From the NCBI GenBank assembly GCA_022705845.1, contig JAKJDQ010000001.1, forward strand, positions 1 through 42,265: 42,265 nucleotides of DNA, given 5' to 3'. Below are positions 35,872-42,006 of this stretch, piece by piece (position 1 is the first letter of the stretch; each line of letters starts with the position of its first letter). Below the pieces are notes generated by a model that was not told the DNA's origin, did not search any database, and was given only the letters and a program-made list of their open reading frames with translations. Source of the stretch: Patescibacteria group bacterium (GTDB lineage: Bacteria; Patescibacteriota; Patescibacteriia; Patescibacteriales; Patescibacteriaceae). The translations under genes were made by a program, and so were the position numbers.

Positions 35872-36033
35872 TTATAATAATGAAATTAGCGGTGTATTTT
35901 GGGCGAAATCCGAACTTTTTTGACGAAAATTCAGATTGCGACTTTTAATTGCCACCCTGTCTGCCTTCGGTGGACAACAGGCGGGTAAAAATTCATTGGT
36001 GGGGACGACACTCAGCCTCCATTCTTTTTGCTT
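35872..36033. other. GC-rich, apparently structured non-coding block (candidate ncRNA or leader of unknown family)
   Basis: No credible ORF. Hand count for 35941-36080 gives 68 G+C in 140 nt (about 49%), against about 27% in a 60-nt sample of the adjacent res gene. An imperfect stem tgtctgc/gtggaca closes on a cttcg loop (35958-35976), and there are several alternative CCACC/GGTGG pairings. Confidence 0.3.
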
Positions 36034-36080
36034 GCTTGTTCCTTGGCTTTGCCAAAAACTTTTCAGAAGGCGACGGGCTA
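36034..36080. repeat. Left arm of a 47-nt imperfect inverted repeat bracketing the R-M cassette
   Basis: The reverse complement of 36034-36080 is tagcccgtcgccttctgaaaagtttttggcaaagccaaggaacaagc. It matches 41812-41858 at 42/47 positions, with the first 21 identical. The inner end lies 28 nt from the res stop. Confidence 0.85.
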
Positions 36081-36108: not shown

Positions 36109-38712
36109 TTAAGAAAGTATTTTATTTTCTAAAGCTTCCTCAAATTCCTTTTTTAATTTCTCGTTATAAAAAGGCAAACCTATAAGTTTAAAATGTTTGT
36201 TTTCTAACTTCAAATCTGTCTCTGCCTTGTTTTCTAATGTAAGCAAAAAATCTTGCTTCCAACCTTCTTTAGAATTTTCAAATCTCCCCTGTTTATCTTT
36301 AAACTGATCGCCCTTAGGTTCAATAAAAATCTGGTAAATATTAACAACTTTATTCCTTTTTTTGAAAATCATTATGAAGTCCGGCTCAAAAGGTCTTCCC
36401 TCATCAAAATCAAATACCTGAAAAAATTTTTCATTGCGGAGTAAGGCTATATCCGAATATTTTTGTCTTAACTTTTCTATAAATCCATCAATAAAACTGA
36501 TAAATTTCTGTTCTTCGTCTGTGCCATAAAATTCAGTCTGGGCATACCAATCTTTTTTAGCTAAATTAACATCTTCCAATTCTTTATTTTGAACTTCATC
36601 AATATCTATTTTGATTTTTTTATCTTTAAAAACCTGCCTCAACATTCTGGCTTTAAATAGGCGGGTTCCCACAAATTCTGAGGTGTTAACCTTCGCTTTT
36701 TCTGATATATTTTTCAACACAAACAAAGCCATATCCAATTTCGCAATTGGCATTAGTTGGTTTAATTTGTCCTTTGGGCCTGAAATTTCTATCTCGACTC
36801 CACCCAAATAACGAGAAGAGGAAATGAATTCTCTAACTGATTTAATGTGTGGAAAATATCTTTTTAATGTTTCAAATTTATAGAACTCAAATTTATCTAA
36901 TGCGCCTCTAACTATATTCTCTCCAAAATCAGAAAGTTTATATTTTATTTTACTTTGCTCCACATCTTTTACGGATTTTGATTCCCCTTTTTCCTCAAAA
37001 ACAACATCTTCTCTAAGTTCACCGGTTCTCAGTTTATATGAGTAAGTGCGCTCAATTCTTGCATCATCTAAACTAAGAATCTCTGTCCTTGGGTTCGGCA
37101 CCCTATCATTTATGAAAACTACACCATTTTTCCAAAAGTCAGTCTTTTTAAAAGAATCCTTAATGAATAGGTCTTTTTGAACATATTTTTCTGGTATAAT
37201 TCCCATTTCTGTGAGAGTGCTTTTTATTTCATCAATATATTTAGGATTGTGTGCGCTGTGATAGTGCAATGTCTCCACAATTCGCAACTCGCTCTCAGTG
37301 TCTTTATCAAACTTCCTTTTATATTTATCCTCTGTTTCATCTAATTGAAATGGAAAATATCTTGCTCCTCTGCCAATAAGTTGCGCCTCTCCCATTGTGG
37401 TATTGCCCGGCTTGTATTTGCCATGAACATATTTACCATCGCGCGTATCATACAATCGGACAATGTCAAATAAATTTAACACATCCCATCCTTCATTTAG
37501 CATATTTACTGCAAAAATTGCCCTTATTTCATTATTTTTATTCTCTAGCGAATTTAATTTTAATTGTCTTTCTTCATCAATATTTTCTGAATCTAAAAGC
37601 ATCACTTTTTCTTTTGAGAAATCTTCTTGCAACTCCTTAATTAAATTTTCAAAAGCTATATTCTCTTTTTTAAAATAATCAAACGCTTTTTCTAAATCCA
37701 TTCCTTTTGCGCGCGAAGATATTTCTTGAATATCTTGTGTTTTTAAATGTTTAATTTTTGCCAAAAACCCTTCATAATTTTCTTTTGATTCTTTTATGCT
37801 TTTTGACTTAAAAAGAATAACTGGCTTTAAATGTAATTTATATTTTTCTGCTATCTTCCGGCGATATTGGCTTAAAATGACTGCTTGTAATGCTCTATCT
37901 AATGGTTCTAAATCTGCTTGTAAAACCTCTATCTCTTTTGAATATTTATCTAATCTAAATTGCCTTAAGTCATACTGAAAAATGATCTTCTCTTCATATT
38001 TTTCTCTAATATTTTGATTACTCAAATCAATGGTAGCGGTAAATTCCAATAAAATATTTTTAGTATTACTATTTAATATTTTTTGAACTGTATATTCCCA
38101 ACTTTTTTCTAATTCAAGCTCTTGCCTGCCTTGTTTTGTAATTGTTTGTAAATGGTGCGCCTCATCAGAAATTAAAACAATTTCTTTGTCAGCAAAATCT
38201 TCATAGGTCAAAGCGTCTTCTTTTGGAAAATTTAAACGAATATGCAATCCTTGAATTGTTGTAAAAAGGATATTTATATCATCTGGACTGGCTGTTTCAA
38301 AATTTTGAACTTCTTTTACAAAAACTTCTTTTCCGCCAAATTTAATTTTTGGCGCAAAAAGATATTTTTCAGATAAAGTATTTAAGAAATTGTCTTTTGT
38401 TTTCTCAATAATATTTACACTATTCACAAAAAAGATAAAATTGCGATAGCCTTGCTTGTAAAGCTGTAAAATGTTGGCAGCCATAATCAATGTTTTACCG
38501 CTTCCGGTCGCCATATGAAATAGTAAATGTGCCGGATAAACTCGTTTTTGATAATCTTTAAAATAAAAATCAAAACGGCCAAGAGCTTCCTTTTGATATT
38601 CCCGCAACTCAAGTTTTGGATTCAAATTTTGAGCAACTTCATCGTCAATCCGTGAAGTAAAAAAATTCTGCCCAAAAGAGTCTTTTATTGAATTAAAAGC
38701 TTCGTAAAGCAT
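36109..38712 (-). CDS. res: Type III restriction enzyme Res subunit (SF2 helicase + C-terminal PD-(D/E)xK nuclease)
   Basis: 867 aa with ELREYQ.EA, motif I HMATGSGKT, motif II LISDEAHH, motif III EFTAT and motif VI QLIGRGARY. The C-terminal nuclease motif is FEPDFIMIF...IFIEPKG. Confidence 0.85.
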   Translation of the reverse strand: MLYEAFNSIKDSFGQNFFTSRIDDEVAQNLNPKLELREYQKEALGRFDFYFKDYQKRVYPAHLLFHMATGSGKTLIMAANILQLYKQGYRNFIFFVNSVNIIEKTKDNFLNTLSEKYLFAPKIKFGGKEVFVKEVQNFETASPDDINILFTTIQGLHIRLNFPKEDALTYEDFADKEIVLISDEAHHLQTITKQGRQELELEKSWEYTVQKILNSNTKNILLEFTATIDLSNQNIREKYEEKIIFQYDLRQFRLDKYSKEIEVLQADLEPLDRALQAVILSQYRRKIAEKYKLHLKPVILFKSKSIKESKENYEGFLAKIKHLKTQDIQEISSRAKGMDLEKAFDYFKKENIAFENLIKELQEDFSKEKVMLLDSENIDEERQLKLNSLENKNNEIRAIFAVNMLNEGWDVLNLFDIVRLYDTRDGKYVHGKYKPGNTTMGEAQLIGRGARYFPFQLDETEDKYKRKFDKDTESELRIVETLHYHSAHNPKYIDEIKSTLTEMGIIPEKYVQKDLFIKDSFKKTDFWKNGVVFINDRVPNPRTEILSLDDARIERTYSYKLRTGELREDVVFEEKGESKSVKDVEQSKIKYKLSDFGENIVRGALDKFEFYKFETLKRYFPHIKSVREFISSSRYLGGVEIEISGPKDKLNQLMPIAKLDMALFVLKNISEKAKVNTSEFVGTRLFKARMLRQVFKDKKIKIDIDEVQNKELEDVNLAKKDWYAQTEFYGTDEEQKFISFIDGFIEKLRQKYSDIALLRNEKFFQVFDFDEGRPFEPDFIMIFKKRNKVVNIYQIFIEPKGDQFKDKQGRFENSKEGWKQDFLLTLENKAETDLKLENKHFKLIGLPFYNEKLKKEFEEALENKILS

Positions 38713-38714
38713 AG

Positions 38715-39470
38715 TTAAACTATCTCCTCCACTACGTCCTCAATTAGTTTCAAATATTTATTTAAATAGAAATAGTCCGGCTCACTTTTTGCAGCTCTAG
38801 TTAAAATTTCAAATTCAGGATTTTCTTTATTATTTCGGTCAAAAAGTATCAATCCAACGCCGAATTTAAGACATAACGATTCAATTCTTTTAATATCGGT
38901 TCCGCGAGCATCTTTTGGAATTACCAAATATACCTTATGACTAAAAAGTTTATAAGAACAAACTTGTCCAAATGCAGTAATAAGTTGATTTATGTCGGTT
39001 TTTATTTCGGCGCTAATGACTTCAATTGGCGGCTGAATATGGCCAATTCCCAAAATTCTATAAGTTCCAATAACATCTGGCGTGCCCCACCTATCTTGAA
39101 ATCTATTGCCGCCCAACGCTACTGCTTTTGTGCATTCTTCTAAATCATTTATTAAATAGTCTGCGAATAATTTATAAAAATCTTCTTCTTTAATTTTCGT
39201 TTCTTCTTCATGTTCGATTGCTCCAAATTCCTTCTCTTTCAAATATTTCCGTAAAATATATAATCCTTTTTCTGGTCTTATTACGTCTTTAACCTCTCCT
39301 TTATCAATTTTTTGCTTAAATTCCCAAATAGTTCCGTGAATCGTATTTATTTTTGTATCCGGCAATAATTCACTTATGCTCCTCATTAAATCAGCATAAC
39401 GAATTCCTTTCGGTGAATTCTCTAAAATTTCCCTCGCAGTTTTAATTATTTGTTCTCGTTGTGTGGTCAT
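38715..39470 (-). CDS. Uncharacterised protein: N-terminal winged-helix (HARE-HTH/Mrr_N-like) + C-terminal PD-(D/E)xK nuclease-fold domain
   Basis: 251 aa. Residues ~5-75 have a wHTH-like pattern (IIKTAREILENSPKGIRYADLMRSISELLP......HGTIW.........V.R.EKGLYILRKY). The C-terminal half has E111/E112, GTP-D132-VIG, ISA-E155-I-K157 and Q169..Y173. Packed 12 nt after mod and 2 nt before res. Confidence 0.6.
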   Translation of the reverse strand: MTTQREQIIKTAREILENSPKGIRYADLMRSISELLPDTKINTIHGTIWEFKQKIDKGEVKDVIRPEKGLYILRKYLKEKEFGAIEHEEETKIKEEDFYKLFADYLINDLEECTKAVALGGNRFQDRWGTPDVIGTYRILGIGHIQPPIEVISAEIKTDINQLITAFGQVCSYKLFSHKVYLVIPKDARGTDIKRIESLCLKFGVGLILFDRNNKENPEFEILTRAAKSEPDYFYLNKYLKLIEDVVEEIV

Positions 39471-39482
39471 AAATTCTAAAAA

Positions 39483-41495
39483 TTAATTTCCATAAAACTC
39501 TCTATTTATTTTTTTATCTTCTTCATCAACTCCATATTCCTCGTCGTCAATTTCACTATAATTGACATAAAGATGGTTTTTGTCTAAACATTCCAGCAAG
39601 AATCTTCTTTGGTTTTCAATAGATAACTCTTCAAAATCTTTGGCGTTTTCATCAATGGCTTTTATATCAACTTTATAGCTTAAAAATACCTTTTCTTTCA
39701 TTATTTTCCATAATTGTTTCAATTCTTCTTTTGTTTTTGCTTTTTGAATTTTTTCAACAAAATTCTCATTCCATTTCGCAAGCTCTAAGTAAACAAAATC
39801 ACCCCCACCTTTCCAACCGACTTGTTTTGAAATGCCAGTTTGATCGCCATTAATAACATTGTTTAATCTAACTACCGCACTATTTTCTCCATAATCAAGT
39901 TGTTCTACTCCTATATACTGCCTCCCCATTTTATGAGCAACAGCACAAGTTGTGCCGGTACCCATAAAGAAATCTAAAACTAAATCACCTTCTTTAGTAA
40001 CTAAATCCAATACTATTCGAAGTAATTCTTCCGGTTTTTTCCCGTATTTCAGCGTTACACCACCCTCGTTAGCAATTCCCTGCCACAAATCTTTTGAAAT
40101 AAGATTGGTTAGTTGTTCTAGTTTAAATATCATTTTCTTTCTTCCTTGCTCTTTTATGACGGCATTTTCTCTTAAAAACAAAATACCTTCTTTTTTATAA
40201 ACATAATATTTCATCTTTTGCCCTTTATACTTACCTTTAGTTGGGGTATAATAATACGAGAACAAATCATTATCCGGTATCAATTCCTTTATTTTTTGTT
40301 CAATTCCGCCAGACAAAGTAGCAGTCCTAAATATTTTTTCAAAATTTTGAACATAAAATTCACTTACATTTTTGATTTCTAGAAAGTTTATTTTGCGAAT
40401 TACGTAGTCTTTCATTCTTCTGATCTCTATTTCCCCATTTTGCGTTTCTAATTTGCCAATTTTGTCTCCTTCGACACCTTCCGATTCAAAAAGCAAATTA
40501 TAACTTTCTATGGTCTTAGACTTTTCATCTACCATCTCTTTTTCTACTAAATTATTTATAGCTTCTATATCTTTTTTCCTTCCATAAACTAAAATATTTT
40601 CTTTAACATCGAAAATTAATCCGCCAGTTGCTACACCGGAAGGTGCTTTTATTTTTATTGCAATACTTGATATGAAATTTTCACGTCCAAATACTTCATC
40701 CATCAAAACCTTCAAATAAGCATGTTCCCGGTCGTCACATTGTACAAAAATAACCCCATCATTTTTTAATAAATTTTTAGCTACTTCTAACCTATTTTTC
40801 ATAAAAGTAAGCCAAGTAGAATGATTGAATGCATCATTATATTTAAAATCATCATTTCCGGTATTATACGGTGGATCAATGTAAATCAGTTTTACTTTTC
40901 CGGCAAAGCGTTTTTTAAGAGAGTGGATAGCTAAAAGATTATTACCTTTGATAATAAGATTATCTTTGATATCTCCGTTTTCGTCAGTTTTGAAATTATC
41001 TAATTTATGTTCACCATTTTTATCAATTCTTTTGGCGTTGGTAAAAACTTTGGGGTCAAGTAAACGGCTAATCTCATCCGGAGCCAATATTTCATTCCAG
41101 AAAATTTCATCTCGTTTTTGCTCTTCTTTTGTCATTCCACCCTCAAGAATACAATCTTTATAAGGCCAAGAAAGCACAACTTCTTTCTTCTCACTAATAA
41201 ATTCACCTTTTTCATCAACGAGTCCAATTTTATTTTTAAAAGTAGTATAACTATCTGGTAAAAATTGTTTATTGGAAACAAACTTAATAAACTTATCCTT
41301 GTCAAAAATTGTAGCTTTTCCAATTTGCTTAAAAAATACCGCTTTCATCTGCTCGTCTGATAAAAGACTCTCAATCATGTCCTTATCTAGTTTTATCGCT
41401 AACTCAATAACTTTATTCTTTAAAAGTTCGCCCTCGCTCACAAGGCGTTCATCTTTTTGAAGTAGATTTTTTAAATTGTCCAATATGCTTTCCAT
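39483..41495 (-). CDS. mod: Type III (beta-class) DNA methyltransferase Mod subunit, N6-adenine/N4-cytosine type
   Basis: 670 aa. Motif IV LIYIDPPYNTGND precedes motif I FFMGTGTTCAVAHKMGRQYIGVE (beta-class order), with a long variable (TRD) region between them and an N-terminal region typical of Type III Mod. Confidence 0.9.
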   Translation of the reverse strand: MESILDNLKNLLQKDERLVSEGELLKNKVIELAIKLDKDMIESLLSDEQMKAVFFKQIGKATIFDKDKFIKFVSNKQFLPDSYTTFKNKIGLVDEKGEFISEKKEVVLSWPYKDCILEGGMTKEEQKRDEIFWNEILAPDEISRLLDPKVFTNAKRIDKNGEHKLDNFKTDENGDIKDNLIIKGNNLLAIHSLKKRFAGKVKLIYIDPPYNTGNDDFKYNDAFNHSTWLTFMKNRLEVAKNLLKNDGVIFVQCDDREHAYLKVLMDEVFGRENFISSIAIKIKAPSGVATGGLIFDVKENILVYGRKKDIEAINNLVEKEMVDEKSKTIESYNLLFESEGVEGDKIGKLETQNGEIEIRRMKDYVIRKINFLEIKNVSEFYVQNFEKIFRTATLSGGIEQKIKELIPDNDLFSYYYTPTKGKYKGQKMKYYVYKKEGILFLRENAVIKEQGRKKMIFKLEQLTNLISKDLWQGIANEGGVTLKYGKKPEELLRIVLDLVTKEGDLVLDFFMGTGTTCAVAHKMGRQYIGVEQLDYGENSAVVRLNNVINGDQTGISKQVGWKGGGDFVYLELAKWNENFVEKIQKAKTKEELKQLWKIMKEKVFLSYKVDIKAIDENAKDFEELSIENQRRFLLECLDKNHLYVNYSEIDDEEYGVDEEDKKINREFYGN

Positions 41496-41499
41496 AGTT

Positions 41500-41709
41500 T
41501 TATTTAATTAAATCATCAATACCGACATCTAAAGCATCAGCGATTTTTTTGATGGTTTTAATTCTAGGGTCTGGTGTAGCCCCAGACTCAATTTTTGTAA
41601 TTGTATGTAAAGTAATACCAGCAAGTTTAGATAACTTGTCTTGGGAAATACCCAGTTTTGCTCGGTATCTTTTTATATTTTTTGCGATAGATGACATTTC
41701 CTTTGACAT
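41500..41709 (-). CDS. XRE-family helix-turn-helix protein (candidate controller/C-protein of the R-M operon)
   Basis: 69 aa with I+.+R...G.SQ..L....G......I..IE.G...P....I.KIA.AL.V..D.L, i.e. HTH_3. First gene of the operon, 4 nt upstream of mod. Confidence 0.85.
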   Translation of the reverse strand: MSKEMSSIAKNIKRYRAKLGISQDKLSKLAGITLHTITKIESGATPDPRIKTIKKIADALDVGIDDLIK

Positions 41710-41811: not shown

Positions 41812-41858
41812 TAGCCCGTCGCCTTCTGAAAAATTTTTGACAAAGCGAAAGAGCAAGC
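41812..41858. repeat. Right arm of the 47-nt imperfect inverted repeat bracketing the R-M cassette
   Basis: tagcccgtcgccttctgaaaaatttttgacaaagcgaaagagcaagc, 42/47 identical to the reverse complement of 36034-36080. The inner end lies 17 nt upstream of the -35 box. Confidence 0.85.
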
Positions 41859-41920
41859 GGACAGAAACACTGGGCGGGATTATTCAAAATCCCAGCCAAA
41901 GTCCAAAAAGTGATAATTAG

Positions 41921-42006
41921 CGGAGGAGAAGGGATTCGAACCCTTGATGCCATATAGGCATAGCGCTTTTCGAGAGCGCCCGATTCAACCACTCTCGCAC
42001 TCCTCC
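41921..42006 (-). tRNA. tRNA-Ser (anticodon CGA), class II long variable arm
   Basis: Reverse complement: acceptor ggaggag/ctcctcc, anticodon stem gcgct/agcgc with loop ct-CGA-aa, variable arm tatgcc-tata-ggcatc, T arm aaggg-ttcgaat-ccctt, discriminator G. No encoded CCA. The 3' end faces the R-M cassette. Confidence 0.9.

Follow-up and report, generated by a model that had tools for sequence, protein, structure and literature searches.

Operons of the restriction-modification (R-M) type can carry accessory defense genes: PrrC, RloC and other rlo genes lie in Type I hsd loci, and BrxU (GmrSD) lies in BREX loci. Shedu (SduA), a single-gene defense nuclease, joins variable N-terminal sensors to a PD-(D/E)xK domain, and Aravind and Iyer are said to have described in 2012 a further combination, HARE-HTH domains fused to restriction-endonuclease domains. 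The Type IV, modification-dependent enzyme Mrr (EcoKMrr) places a winged helix at its N-terminus and a PD-(D/E)xK domain at its C-terminus. Here, we analyze a stretch of 42,265 nucleotides (nt) from a Patescibacteria group bacterium (assembly GCA_022705845.1, contig JAKJDQ010000001.1, positions 1 to 42,265; hereafter, the window), and in particular a protein of 251 amino acids (aa) encoded on its minus strand at 38715..39470, which we call X, as we do its gene. We propose that X is an autonomous PD-(D/E)xK nuclease, predicted from sequence and structural models and tethered to DNA by a winged helix-turn-helix (wHTH) domain, that is carried as optional defense cargo in a Type III R-M operon. 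We give this reading, in which X targets DNA and is probably defensive, an even chance.

The AlphaFold2 model of full-length X, built from a 41-sequence alignment, has a mean predicted local distance difference test (pLDDT) score of 77.5 and divides the protein into three parts. Residues 1-77 (39240..39470, minus strand) form a putative DNA-binding winged helix, with three helices (residues 4-17, 25-35 and 41-56) and a beta-wing (70-73) assigned by DSSP. Foldseek matches this domain to the DNA-binding domain of Rok (5zuz; probability 1.00, TMt 0.48), to the HARE-HTH domain of the RNA polymerase delta subunit/RpoE (8x6g_E; TMt 0.63, root-mean-square deviation 2.2), and to the winged helices of Fur, Zur and PerR. 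A Glu/Lys-rich linker of variable length follows (residues 78-94; 39189..39239, minus strand); it is predicted to be disordered, with pLDDT below 50 at residues 78-91, and is rich in insertions and deletions in two family alignments. The remainder of the protein, residues 95-251 (38718..39188, minus strand), adopts a predicted PD-(D/E)xK nuclease fold, with helices at 95-108, 160-174 and 190-203 and strands at 115-118, 133-136, 151-156, 179-185 and 206-210. When this domain is modeled alone (pLDDT 85.7, predicted template modeling (TM) score 0.85), the order helix-strand-strand-strand-helix-strand-helix-strand is the same as in the full-length model. An earlier note on this DNA, made from the letters of the sequence, had predicted both an N-terminal winged helix and an alpha-beta-beta-beta-alpha-beta restriction-endonuclease core, and both are present in these models.

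The top Foldseek matches of the C-terminal domain in the Protein Data Bank (PDB) are XisH, AF2093, YaeQ, SfsA, BsaWI, XPF, MspJI, AspBHI, MUS81 and Card1, with ERCC1 also listed; their probabilities range from about 0.4 to 1.0, their E-values from 2e-3 to 0.25 and their TM scores from 0.3 to 0.5. Viral MmcB-like and UL24 models match as well (best E 3e-6). The best structural neighbors are thus small PD-(D/E)xK proteins, MmcB-like proteins, XisH, AF2093 and YaeQ, yet these matches are weak (TM 0.3-0.7, 10-20% identity), none of them is matched by sequence profile, and these proteins lack the wHTH domain of X. The models support assignment of the C-terminal domain to the PD-(D/E)xK fold class, in which X has no close solved relative.

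Conservation across the family points to a working active site. X carries the literal motif P131-D132 ... E155-x-K157 followed by Q169-x-x-x-Y173, and in a set of 118 cluster representatives that are 32-49% identical to X, P131 and Q169 are conserved in 100%, D132, E155 and K157 in 99% each, and Y173, E95 and Y99 in 98%. In the model, P131-D132 opens strand 133-136, E155-I-K157 closes strand 151-156, and Q169 and Y173 lie within helix 160-174. On the DNA, the block from W128-G-T-P131-D132 through E155-I-K157 to Q169-x-x-x-Y173 spans 38952..39089 on the minus strand, with the D132 codon read directly as GAT at 39075-39077, and the conserved helix acid E95 lies apart from it at 39186-39188 (minus strand). 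All of the peptides that the earlier note had quoted, ILENSPKGIRYADLMRSISELLP, GLYILRKY, LEEC (E111/E112), WGTPD132VIG, ISAE155IK157 and Q169VCSY173, are found at the residue numbers given there. Its choice of E111/E112 as the acid of the first core helix does not stand: these residues are conserved in only 39% and 75% of representatives and lie in a loop after the helix, and the acid in question is instead E95, in helix 95-108. No positions of X are more conserved than its catalytic residues, which is not expected of a dead fold; near-invariance at 32-49% identity, together with the two-domain architecture, argues for a predicted active nuclease rather than a structural protein, as that note had supposed. 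The pattern E...PD...ExK...QxxxY is that of RecB/Cas4-type members of the PD-(D/E)xK superfamily. The profile of this subgroup (PF12705) matches neither X nor any of 60 diverse relatives, despite the presence of the QxxxY motif.

The two domains of X have not been conserved to the same degree. Among 150 family representatives, 123 have the wHTH-nuclease arrangement, the wHTH is doubled in six and present four times in one, and in the remaining 20, which are fragments or have a different N-terminal region, the nuclease domain is the only one recognized. Median identity to the window protein is 49% in the nuclease domain versus 28% in the wHTH domain, and by these alignments the nuclease domain is the constant element of the family. 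A constant PD-(D/E)xK effector behind a variable N-terminal module, encoded by single genes of patchy distribution, is also the design of Shedu; X belongs to a different family, and it matches no PADLOC model, including any for Shedu. Tandem wHTH domains (two to four copies) or other N-terminal variants occur in P0121, P0122, P0150, P0153, P0160, P0236, P0246, P0139, P0151 and P0238, among which P0139 bears a histone-H1-like AKKAAKP repeat tail. By eye, the N-terminal modules of P0151, P0231 and P0238 look EVE/PUA-like, HARE-HTH-like and ParB-like, respectively; PDB sequence searches with them matched nothing, and these unverified readings were not used.

The earlier note had called X an orphan, and X does lack a curated family, but in no other sense is the label correct. 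Homologs abound: 2,210 clusters are found at E<=1e-3, all of them unnamed, and a set of clusters at 50% identity gives 1,013, of which 296 fall below 1e-30. A scan of 185,579 species genomes found relatives in 443, which are spread over Patescibacteria, Planctomycetota, Acidobacteriota, Chloroflexota, Nitrospirota, Aquificota, ANME/Methanosarcinales and DPANN archaea. X has no Pfam match even at E<=1, the 60 relatives likewise match no nuclease family of Pfam, and PDB sequence searches with X and with the family profile return chance matches only. Faint matches of X are limited to NCBIfam sce7726_fam (E 0.02) and phrog_6235 of PHROGs (E 0.017). In annotated collections, one unannotated megaplasmid matches X. 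Five viral-classified contigs of IMG/VR (L172-L176) encode relatives of 35-49% identity, and none was found among 50,697 GenBank phage records.

Of the described enzymes, Mrr is the nearest in design. Both proteins are about 250-300 aa long with an N-terminal winged helix and a C-terminal PD-(D/E)xK domain, both usually lack a cognate methylase, and both occur near R-M genes, E. coli mrr adjoining hsdR. A sequence relationship is nevertheless undetectable, and the QxxxY motif belongs to X. Mrr_N (PF14338) and Mrr_cat (PF04471) both match EcoKMrr and neither matches X or its 60 relatives, and an hhalign comparison of the family profile with EcoKMrr gave a probability of 0.25%, on which we rejected homology to Mrr. 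The architecture that the earlier note had in mind was equally that of HARE-HTH-restriction-endonuclease fusions. The N-terminal domain of X does superimpose on the HARE-HTH domain of RNA polymerase delta, yet among its relatives the commoner and stronger match is WH_Rok (PF23159), found in 17 of the 60 (best E 9.9e-6) versus three weak HARE-HTH (PF05066) matches (best E 0.03), and the window protein itself matches neither, in the case of HARE-HTH even at E<=1. The proposed membership in the Mrr and HARE-HTH families is therefore not upheld; by the tests run, X resembles Mrr in architecture and is not a member of its family. X represents a new, unnamed family. Its architecture is familiar, and so is its situation, that of accessory genes inside restriction operons.

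This situation is a slot between mod and res that we know of no earlier description of as a setting for cargo. In the window, X lies between the gene for a 670-aa Type III Mod methyltransferase (39483..41495, minus strand; PADLOC MTase_III 8.9e-194; Pfam N6_N4_Mtase and TypeIII_RM_meth) and that for an 867-aa Type III Res (36109..38712, minus strand; PADLOC REase_III 2.6e-142; Pfam ResIII; C-terminal PD...ExK motif); the mod-res junction of the window covers 38713-39482. We surveyed 80 metagenomic loci (L092-L171) whose Res is 71-100% identical to that of the window, 70 of which extend 800 nt or more upstream of res. X is present in four of the 70, and in L094, where Res is 99% identical, a 277-aa Abi_C protein stands where the window has X. 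For 64 loci the sequence shows both where mod ends and where res begins. Eleven of these have an empty slot, with 4-8 nt between the two genes; in the other 53, one to four same-strand genes occupy a gap of 555-4,383 nt and add up to 86 open reading frames (ORFs) in 41 clusters. Many of these clusters have no family. Those with annotation include Abi_C, Schlafen/AlbA_2, AAA_13 and AAA_14/NB-ARC ATPases, an OLD-type ATPase-TOPRIM protein, a CBASS (cyclic-oligonucleotide-based anti-phage signaling system) cyclase with a one-transmembrane (1TM) effector, DRT reverse transcriptases, SoFic, PD-Lambda-5_B, LmuB and several PADLOC candidate systems. Because X is found in few loci with a close Res and alternative occupants are many, X is one of many interchangeable occupants of a defense-gene slot.

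The same holds in a second Type III lineage, sampled at five loci (L178-L182) whose Res is 80-88% identical to an X-linked Res. None of the five has X; no gene was called in three of the slots, and the other two contain, respectively, a gene for a Trypsin_2 protease and a gene for an SMC/AAA_21 ATPase. X-bearing operons of this lineage also hold HEPN-AbiU2, Schlafen/AlbA_2 or RhuM/Fic genes. With cargo that varies among close relatives, the mod-res slot behaves exactly as do the accessory positions of PrrC, RloC and BrxU, which are likewise optional same-strand extras in a restriction operon, often of abortive-infection or Type IV type. What differs is the host operon, which is of Type III, and the slot, which is the mod-res junction; X is also unrelated to those proteins. 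Since close Type III operons differ mainly in their mod-res content, and known modules alternate there with unannotated genes, the slot offers a "guilt by embedding" handle on new defense genes in uncultured lineages.

Some features of the Type III-embedded copies suit a closer relationship with the host enzyme, in which X would be a functional partner that binds Res or Mod, or whose substrate would be DNA cut by Res or carrying a stalled Res. Variants of this idea make X an end-processing nuclease of the RecB kind, which would break down restricted DNA in hosts with reduced genomes, or a PrrC-like guard that fires upon R-M inhibition. Close homologs of X (54-100% identity) lie within Type III operons, often 2 nt from res, and this 2-nt junction recurs in L001, L005, L010 and L011. 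In a neighbor-joining tree the embedded copies form one clade, with 12 of 13 leaves demonstrably Type III-linked and the thirteenth on a contig too short for linkage to be judged. Within the L012/L005-type lineage the three proteins co-diverge, identity falling from 82% to 53% for X, from 78% to 43% for Res and from 68% to 55% for Mod. X is found again between mod and res after lateral transfer, and its QxxxY motif is one that RecB/Cas4-type nucleases, which process DNA ends, typically have.

The census speaks against such a partnership, as 66 of 70 close Res homologs, one of them 99% identical, and all five of the second lineage go without X. Near-identical X proteins (84-89%) also accompany Res proteins that have no BLAST-level similarity to each other, which makes a specific interface unlikely; other genes (a 66-aa ORF, RhuM/Fic) can separate X from res; and no R-M gene adjoins about 80% of the family. 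The earlier note had read the 2-nt gap as a sign of translational coupling and possibly of a physical complex with Res. In occupied slots the final cargo gene, whatever it is, usually stops a few nucleotides before res, and since other cargo is equally tight, this spacing is a property of the slot and not of X; the case of X indicates that tight gene spacing is poor evidence of a protein complex. We consider a functional partnership with the Type III enzyme unlikely, and we rejected the stricter idea of X as an obligate Type III subunit, on the census and on the mostly R-M-free family. A role in replacing a missing Res nuclease was also rejected: every Res compared retains its own C-terminal PD...(D/E)xK motif, which in the window Res reads FEPDF...IFIEPKG. 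In some L012-type Res proteins (L012, L010 and L004) D-P-H stands for D-P-K in this motif (VDPHG versus VDPKG/IDPKG), which may be a variant or an inactivated form of the catalytic lysine. A PDB sequence match for the window Res was not found.

The autonomy of X is further suggested by its transfer between operons. The Type III system of the window and of L011 differs from the L012 type, with Res only 23% identical over 303 aa and Mods that share only a catalytic core of about 110 aa. The X of the window and of L011 is nonetheless 84-89% identical to L012-type X and is nested inside the L012-type group in the tree. A near-identical X beside an unrelated Res, in this nested position, indicates that X moved between unrelated Type III operons, once. 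At L001-L003 (8001-8765), an intact X lies beside transposase genes of the IS1595 and IS3 types, a truncated res encodes just 140 aa, and mod was not found there; the locus resembles a Type III system that has decayed, with X as its sole whole survivor. Some embedded copies have a further gene directly upstream, which is missing from the window and encodes a protein of 268 aa in L011, L096 and L144 and of 257 aa in L016 and L153. The L016 copy of this protein has no family and the L011 copy has a weak DUF3800-like match (E 5e-3); it may form a recurrent two-gene cassette with X. At L021 (6469-9643), an X that is 55% identical directly follows a gene for an AlwI-family restriction endonuclease (E 6e-40), and a Glyco_hydro_19-like gene begins 2 nt after X.

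Most of the family is found outside such operons. Around 80% of the wider family lies apart from restriction systems. In a survey of the immediate neighbors (+/-1 gene) of members at or below about 53% identity, the 115 neighbors include only three methylases and three ResIII genes. Distant X genes instead adjoin genes for PurL, leucyl- and aspartyl-tRNA synthetases, CarB, trehalose-P synthase or TsaD, or the relaxases and integrases of mobile elements. The housekeeping neighbors of many solitary members would suit a nuclease with a housekeeping-type role, akin to MmcB, XPF or MUS81, that acts in DNA repair or on particular DNA structures and whose location in an R-M operon is incidental. Structure offers this idea some support, as the best viral matches of the C-terminal domain are annotated as MmcB-like DNA repair proteins (E 4.5e-5, TMt 0.72) and XPF, MUS81 and ERCC1 appear in the PDB list. 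A repair role sits poorly with the very patchy spread of the family (443 of 185,579 species genomes), with its distribution across bacteria and archaea, which implies horizontal transfer, with the mobile-element contexts of some members, and with the position of the window clade in a slot full of defense modules. The MmcB Pfam family, moreover, is unmatched by any of the 60 relatives checked, and we judge a housekeeping repair function quite unlikely.

The scarcity of methylases bears on whether X could be a sequence-specific restriction endonuclease of the classical kind, with protection from the Type III Mod in the window or from a small Type II methylase in some relatives. Three distant X genes (L034, L070 and L078) do lie 6-26 nt from genes for N6/N4 methylases of 289-338 aa that match Type II models, and an AlwI-family enzyme precedes X in L021. 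The three methylase-adjacent members are not a clade, their common ancestor spanning 30 leaves of the tree, and the pairing is possibly incidental; most members have no nearby methylase, and a Type II enzyme without one would kill its host; and near-identical X proteins coexist with Mods that share only the ~110-aa core and presumably differ in specificity. We regard a classical restriction endonuclease as very improbable, and a Type II enzyme paired with small methylases, seen at just three loci scattered in the tree, was rejected as an account of X, though Type II-like pairs may exist at those loci. As most X genes have no cognate methylase, the host genome is presumably spared by another rule. 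Candidates for this rule are dependence on modification, as in Type IV systems, dependence on DNA ends or structure, and activation only on infection.

The organization of the window operon indicates how X would be expressed. Four genes on the minus strand, encoding a helix-turn-helix (HTH) protein, Mod, X and Res, make up one cluster, within which no internal terminator-like site was seen. The first encodes a 69-aa Xre/C-protein-type HTH protein (41500..41709, minus strand; Pfam HTH_3 5.9e-15; PADLOC Control_protein matches) and lies 4 nt upstream of mod, an arrangement shared by L178; it is probably the controller protein of the Type III operon. The TAA stop of mod is followed, 12 nt on, by the ATG of X, and direct reading of this junction shows no obvious Shine-Dalgarno sequence for X. 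The 251-aa ORF runs uninterrupted from ATG to TAA, as the earlier note had it, with the strand corrected to minus: translation of the plus strand over this interval meets many stops, and the peptide reported there is the minus-strand product. The 2-nt gap between X and res is also as reported, the end of X reading ...GTG GAG GAG ATA GTT TAA ct ATG, and because the 3' end of X contains GTG GAG GAG, the GGAGGAG Shine-Dalgarno sequence of res (38724..38730, minus strand, read directly) lies within the final codons of X.

A winged-helix protein encoded directly upstream of res, with a weak ribosome-binding site of its own, could also be imagined as a DNA-binding regulator of res whose nuclease fold is degenerate or serves in oligomerization only. 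This is hardly credible given that the catalytic residues are the most conserved in the protein, that the operon already has a C-protein, and that most operons of this Type III family run without X.

In the reading that we prefer, in which X is an autonomous nuclease carried as cargo, X would be co-transcribed from the C-protein-controlled promoter of the operon, with its 3' end supplying the ribosome-binding site of res. The N-terminal winged helix, Rok- or HARE-like, would tether the protein to DNA, and the flexible linker would join it to the PD-(D/E)xK domain. By analogy to the superfamily, E95, D132 and E155 are the expected metal ligands, K157 is the residue expected to activate water, and the helix with Q169xxxY173 is the expected contact to phosphate. 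X would not be a Type III subunit; rather, as an optional, self-sufficient gene in a variable mod-res defense slot, it would provide an independent second-line nuclease against foreign DNA, whose discrimination of self from non-self does not involve the neighboring Mod. Its mode of action may be Type IV-like, that is, modification-dependent, or may depend on DNA ends or structure.

Several observations weigh against this proposal. The embedded clade co-diverges with Mod and Res, and X took up the mod-res slot again after it had moved to another Type III system; functional coupling, and not co-inheritance alone, could lie behind this. The housekeeping genes beside many solitary members fit repair as well as defense. 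X matches no PADLOC 2.0 defense model at E<=1 (other cargo of the slot matches many), the Foldseek matches of its isolated nuclease domain to solved nucleases are weak (E >= 2e-3, TM 0.38-0.48), and the context survey comprised only 80 genome loci, with genes called by a simple ORF caller. A bolder version of the proposal would have X found a new single-gene anti-phage nuclease family, with the Type III-embedded clade wired to its host enzyme, through degradation of Res-made ends or PrrC-like firing, and the mod-res junction acting as an unrecognized exchange site for defense cassettes. We think this combination rather unlikely. If X is active alone, a large unnamed family, of about 1,000 clusters at 50% identity, would join the candidate defense effectors.

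The operon as a whole is bounded by a repeat. A 62-nt inverted repeat, whose arms at 36019..36080 and 41812..41873 are 82% complementary and share a 21-nt perfect core (TTTTCAGAAGGCGACGGGCTA), flanks the entire C-mod-X-res operon. Only these two copies occur in the window, against none expected by chance, and no Rfam family matches the repeat. Its core is also found about 30 nt after res in seven related loci. The repeat could mark the termini of a mobile cassette, or could be a regulatory element or terminator that these loci have in common. A tRNA-Ser(cga) gene (41920-42006, minus strand) lies directly outside the right arm, and because of this position the operon may be an island inserted beside a tRNA gene.

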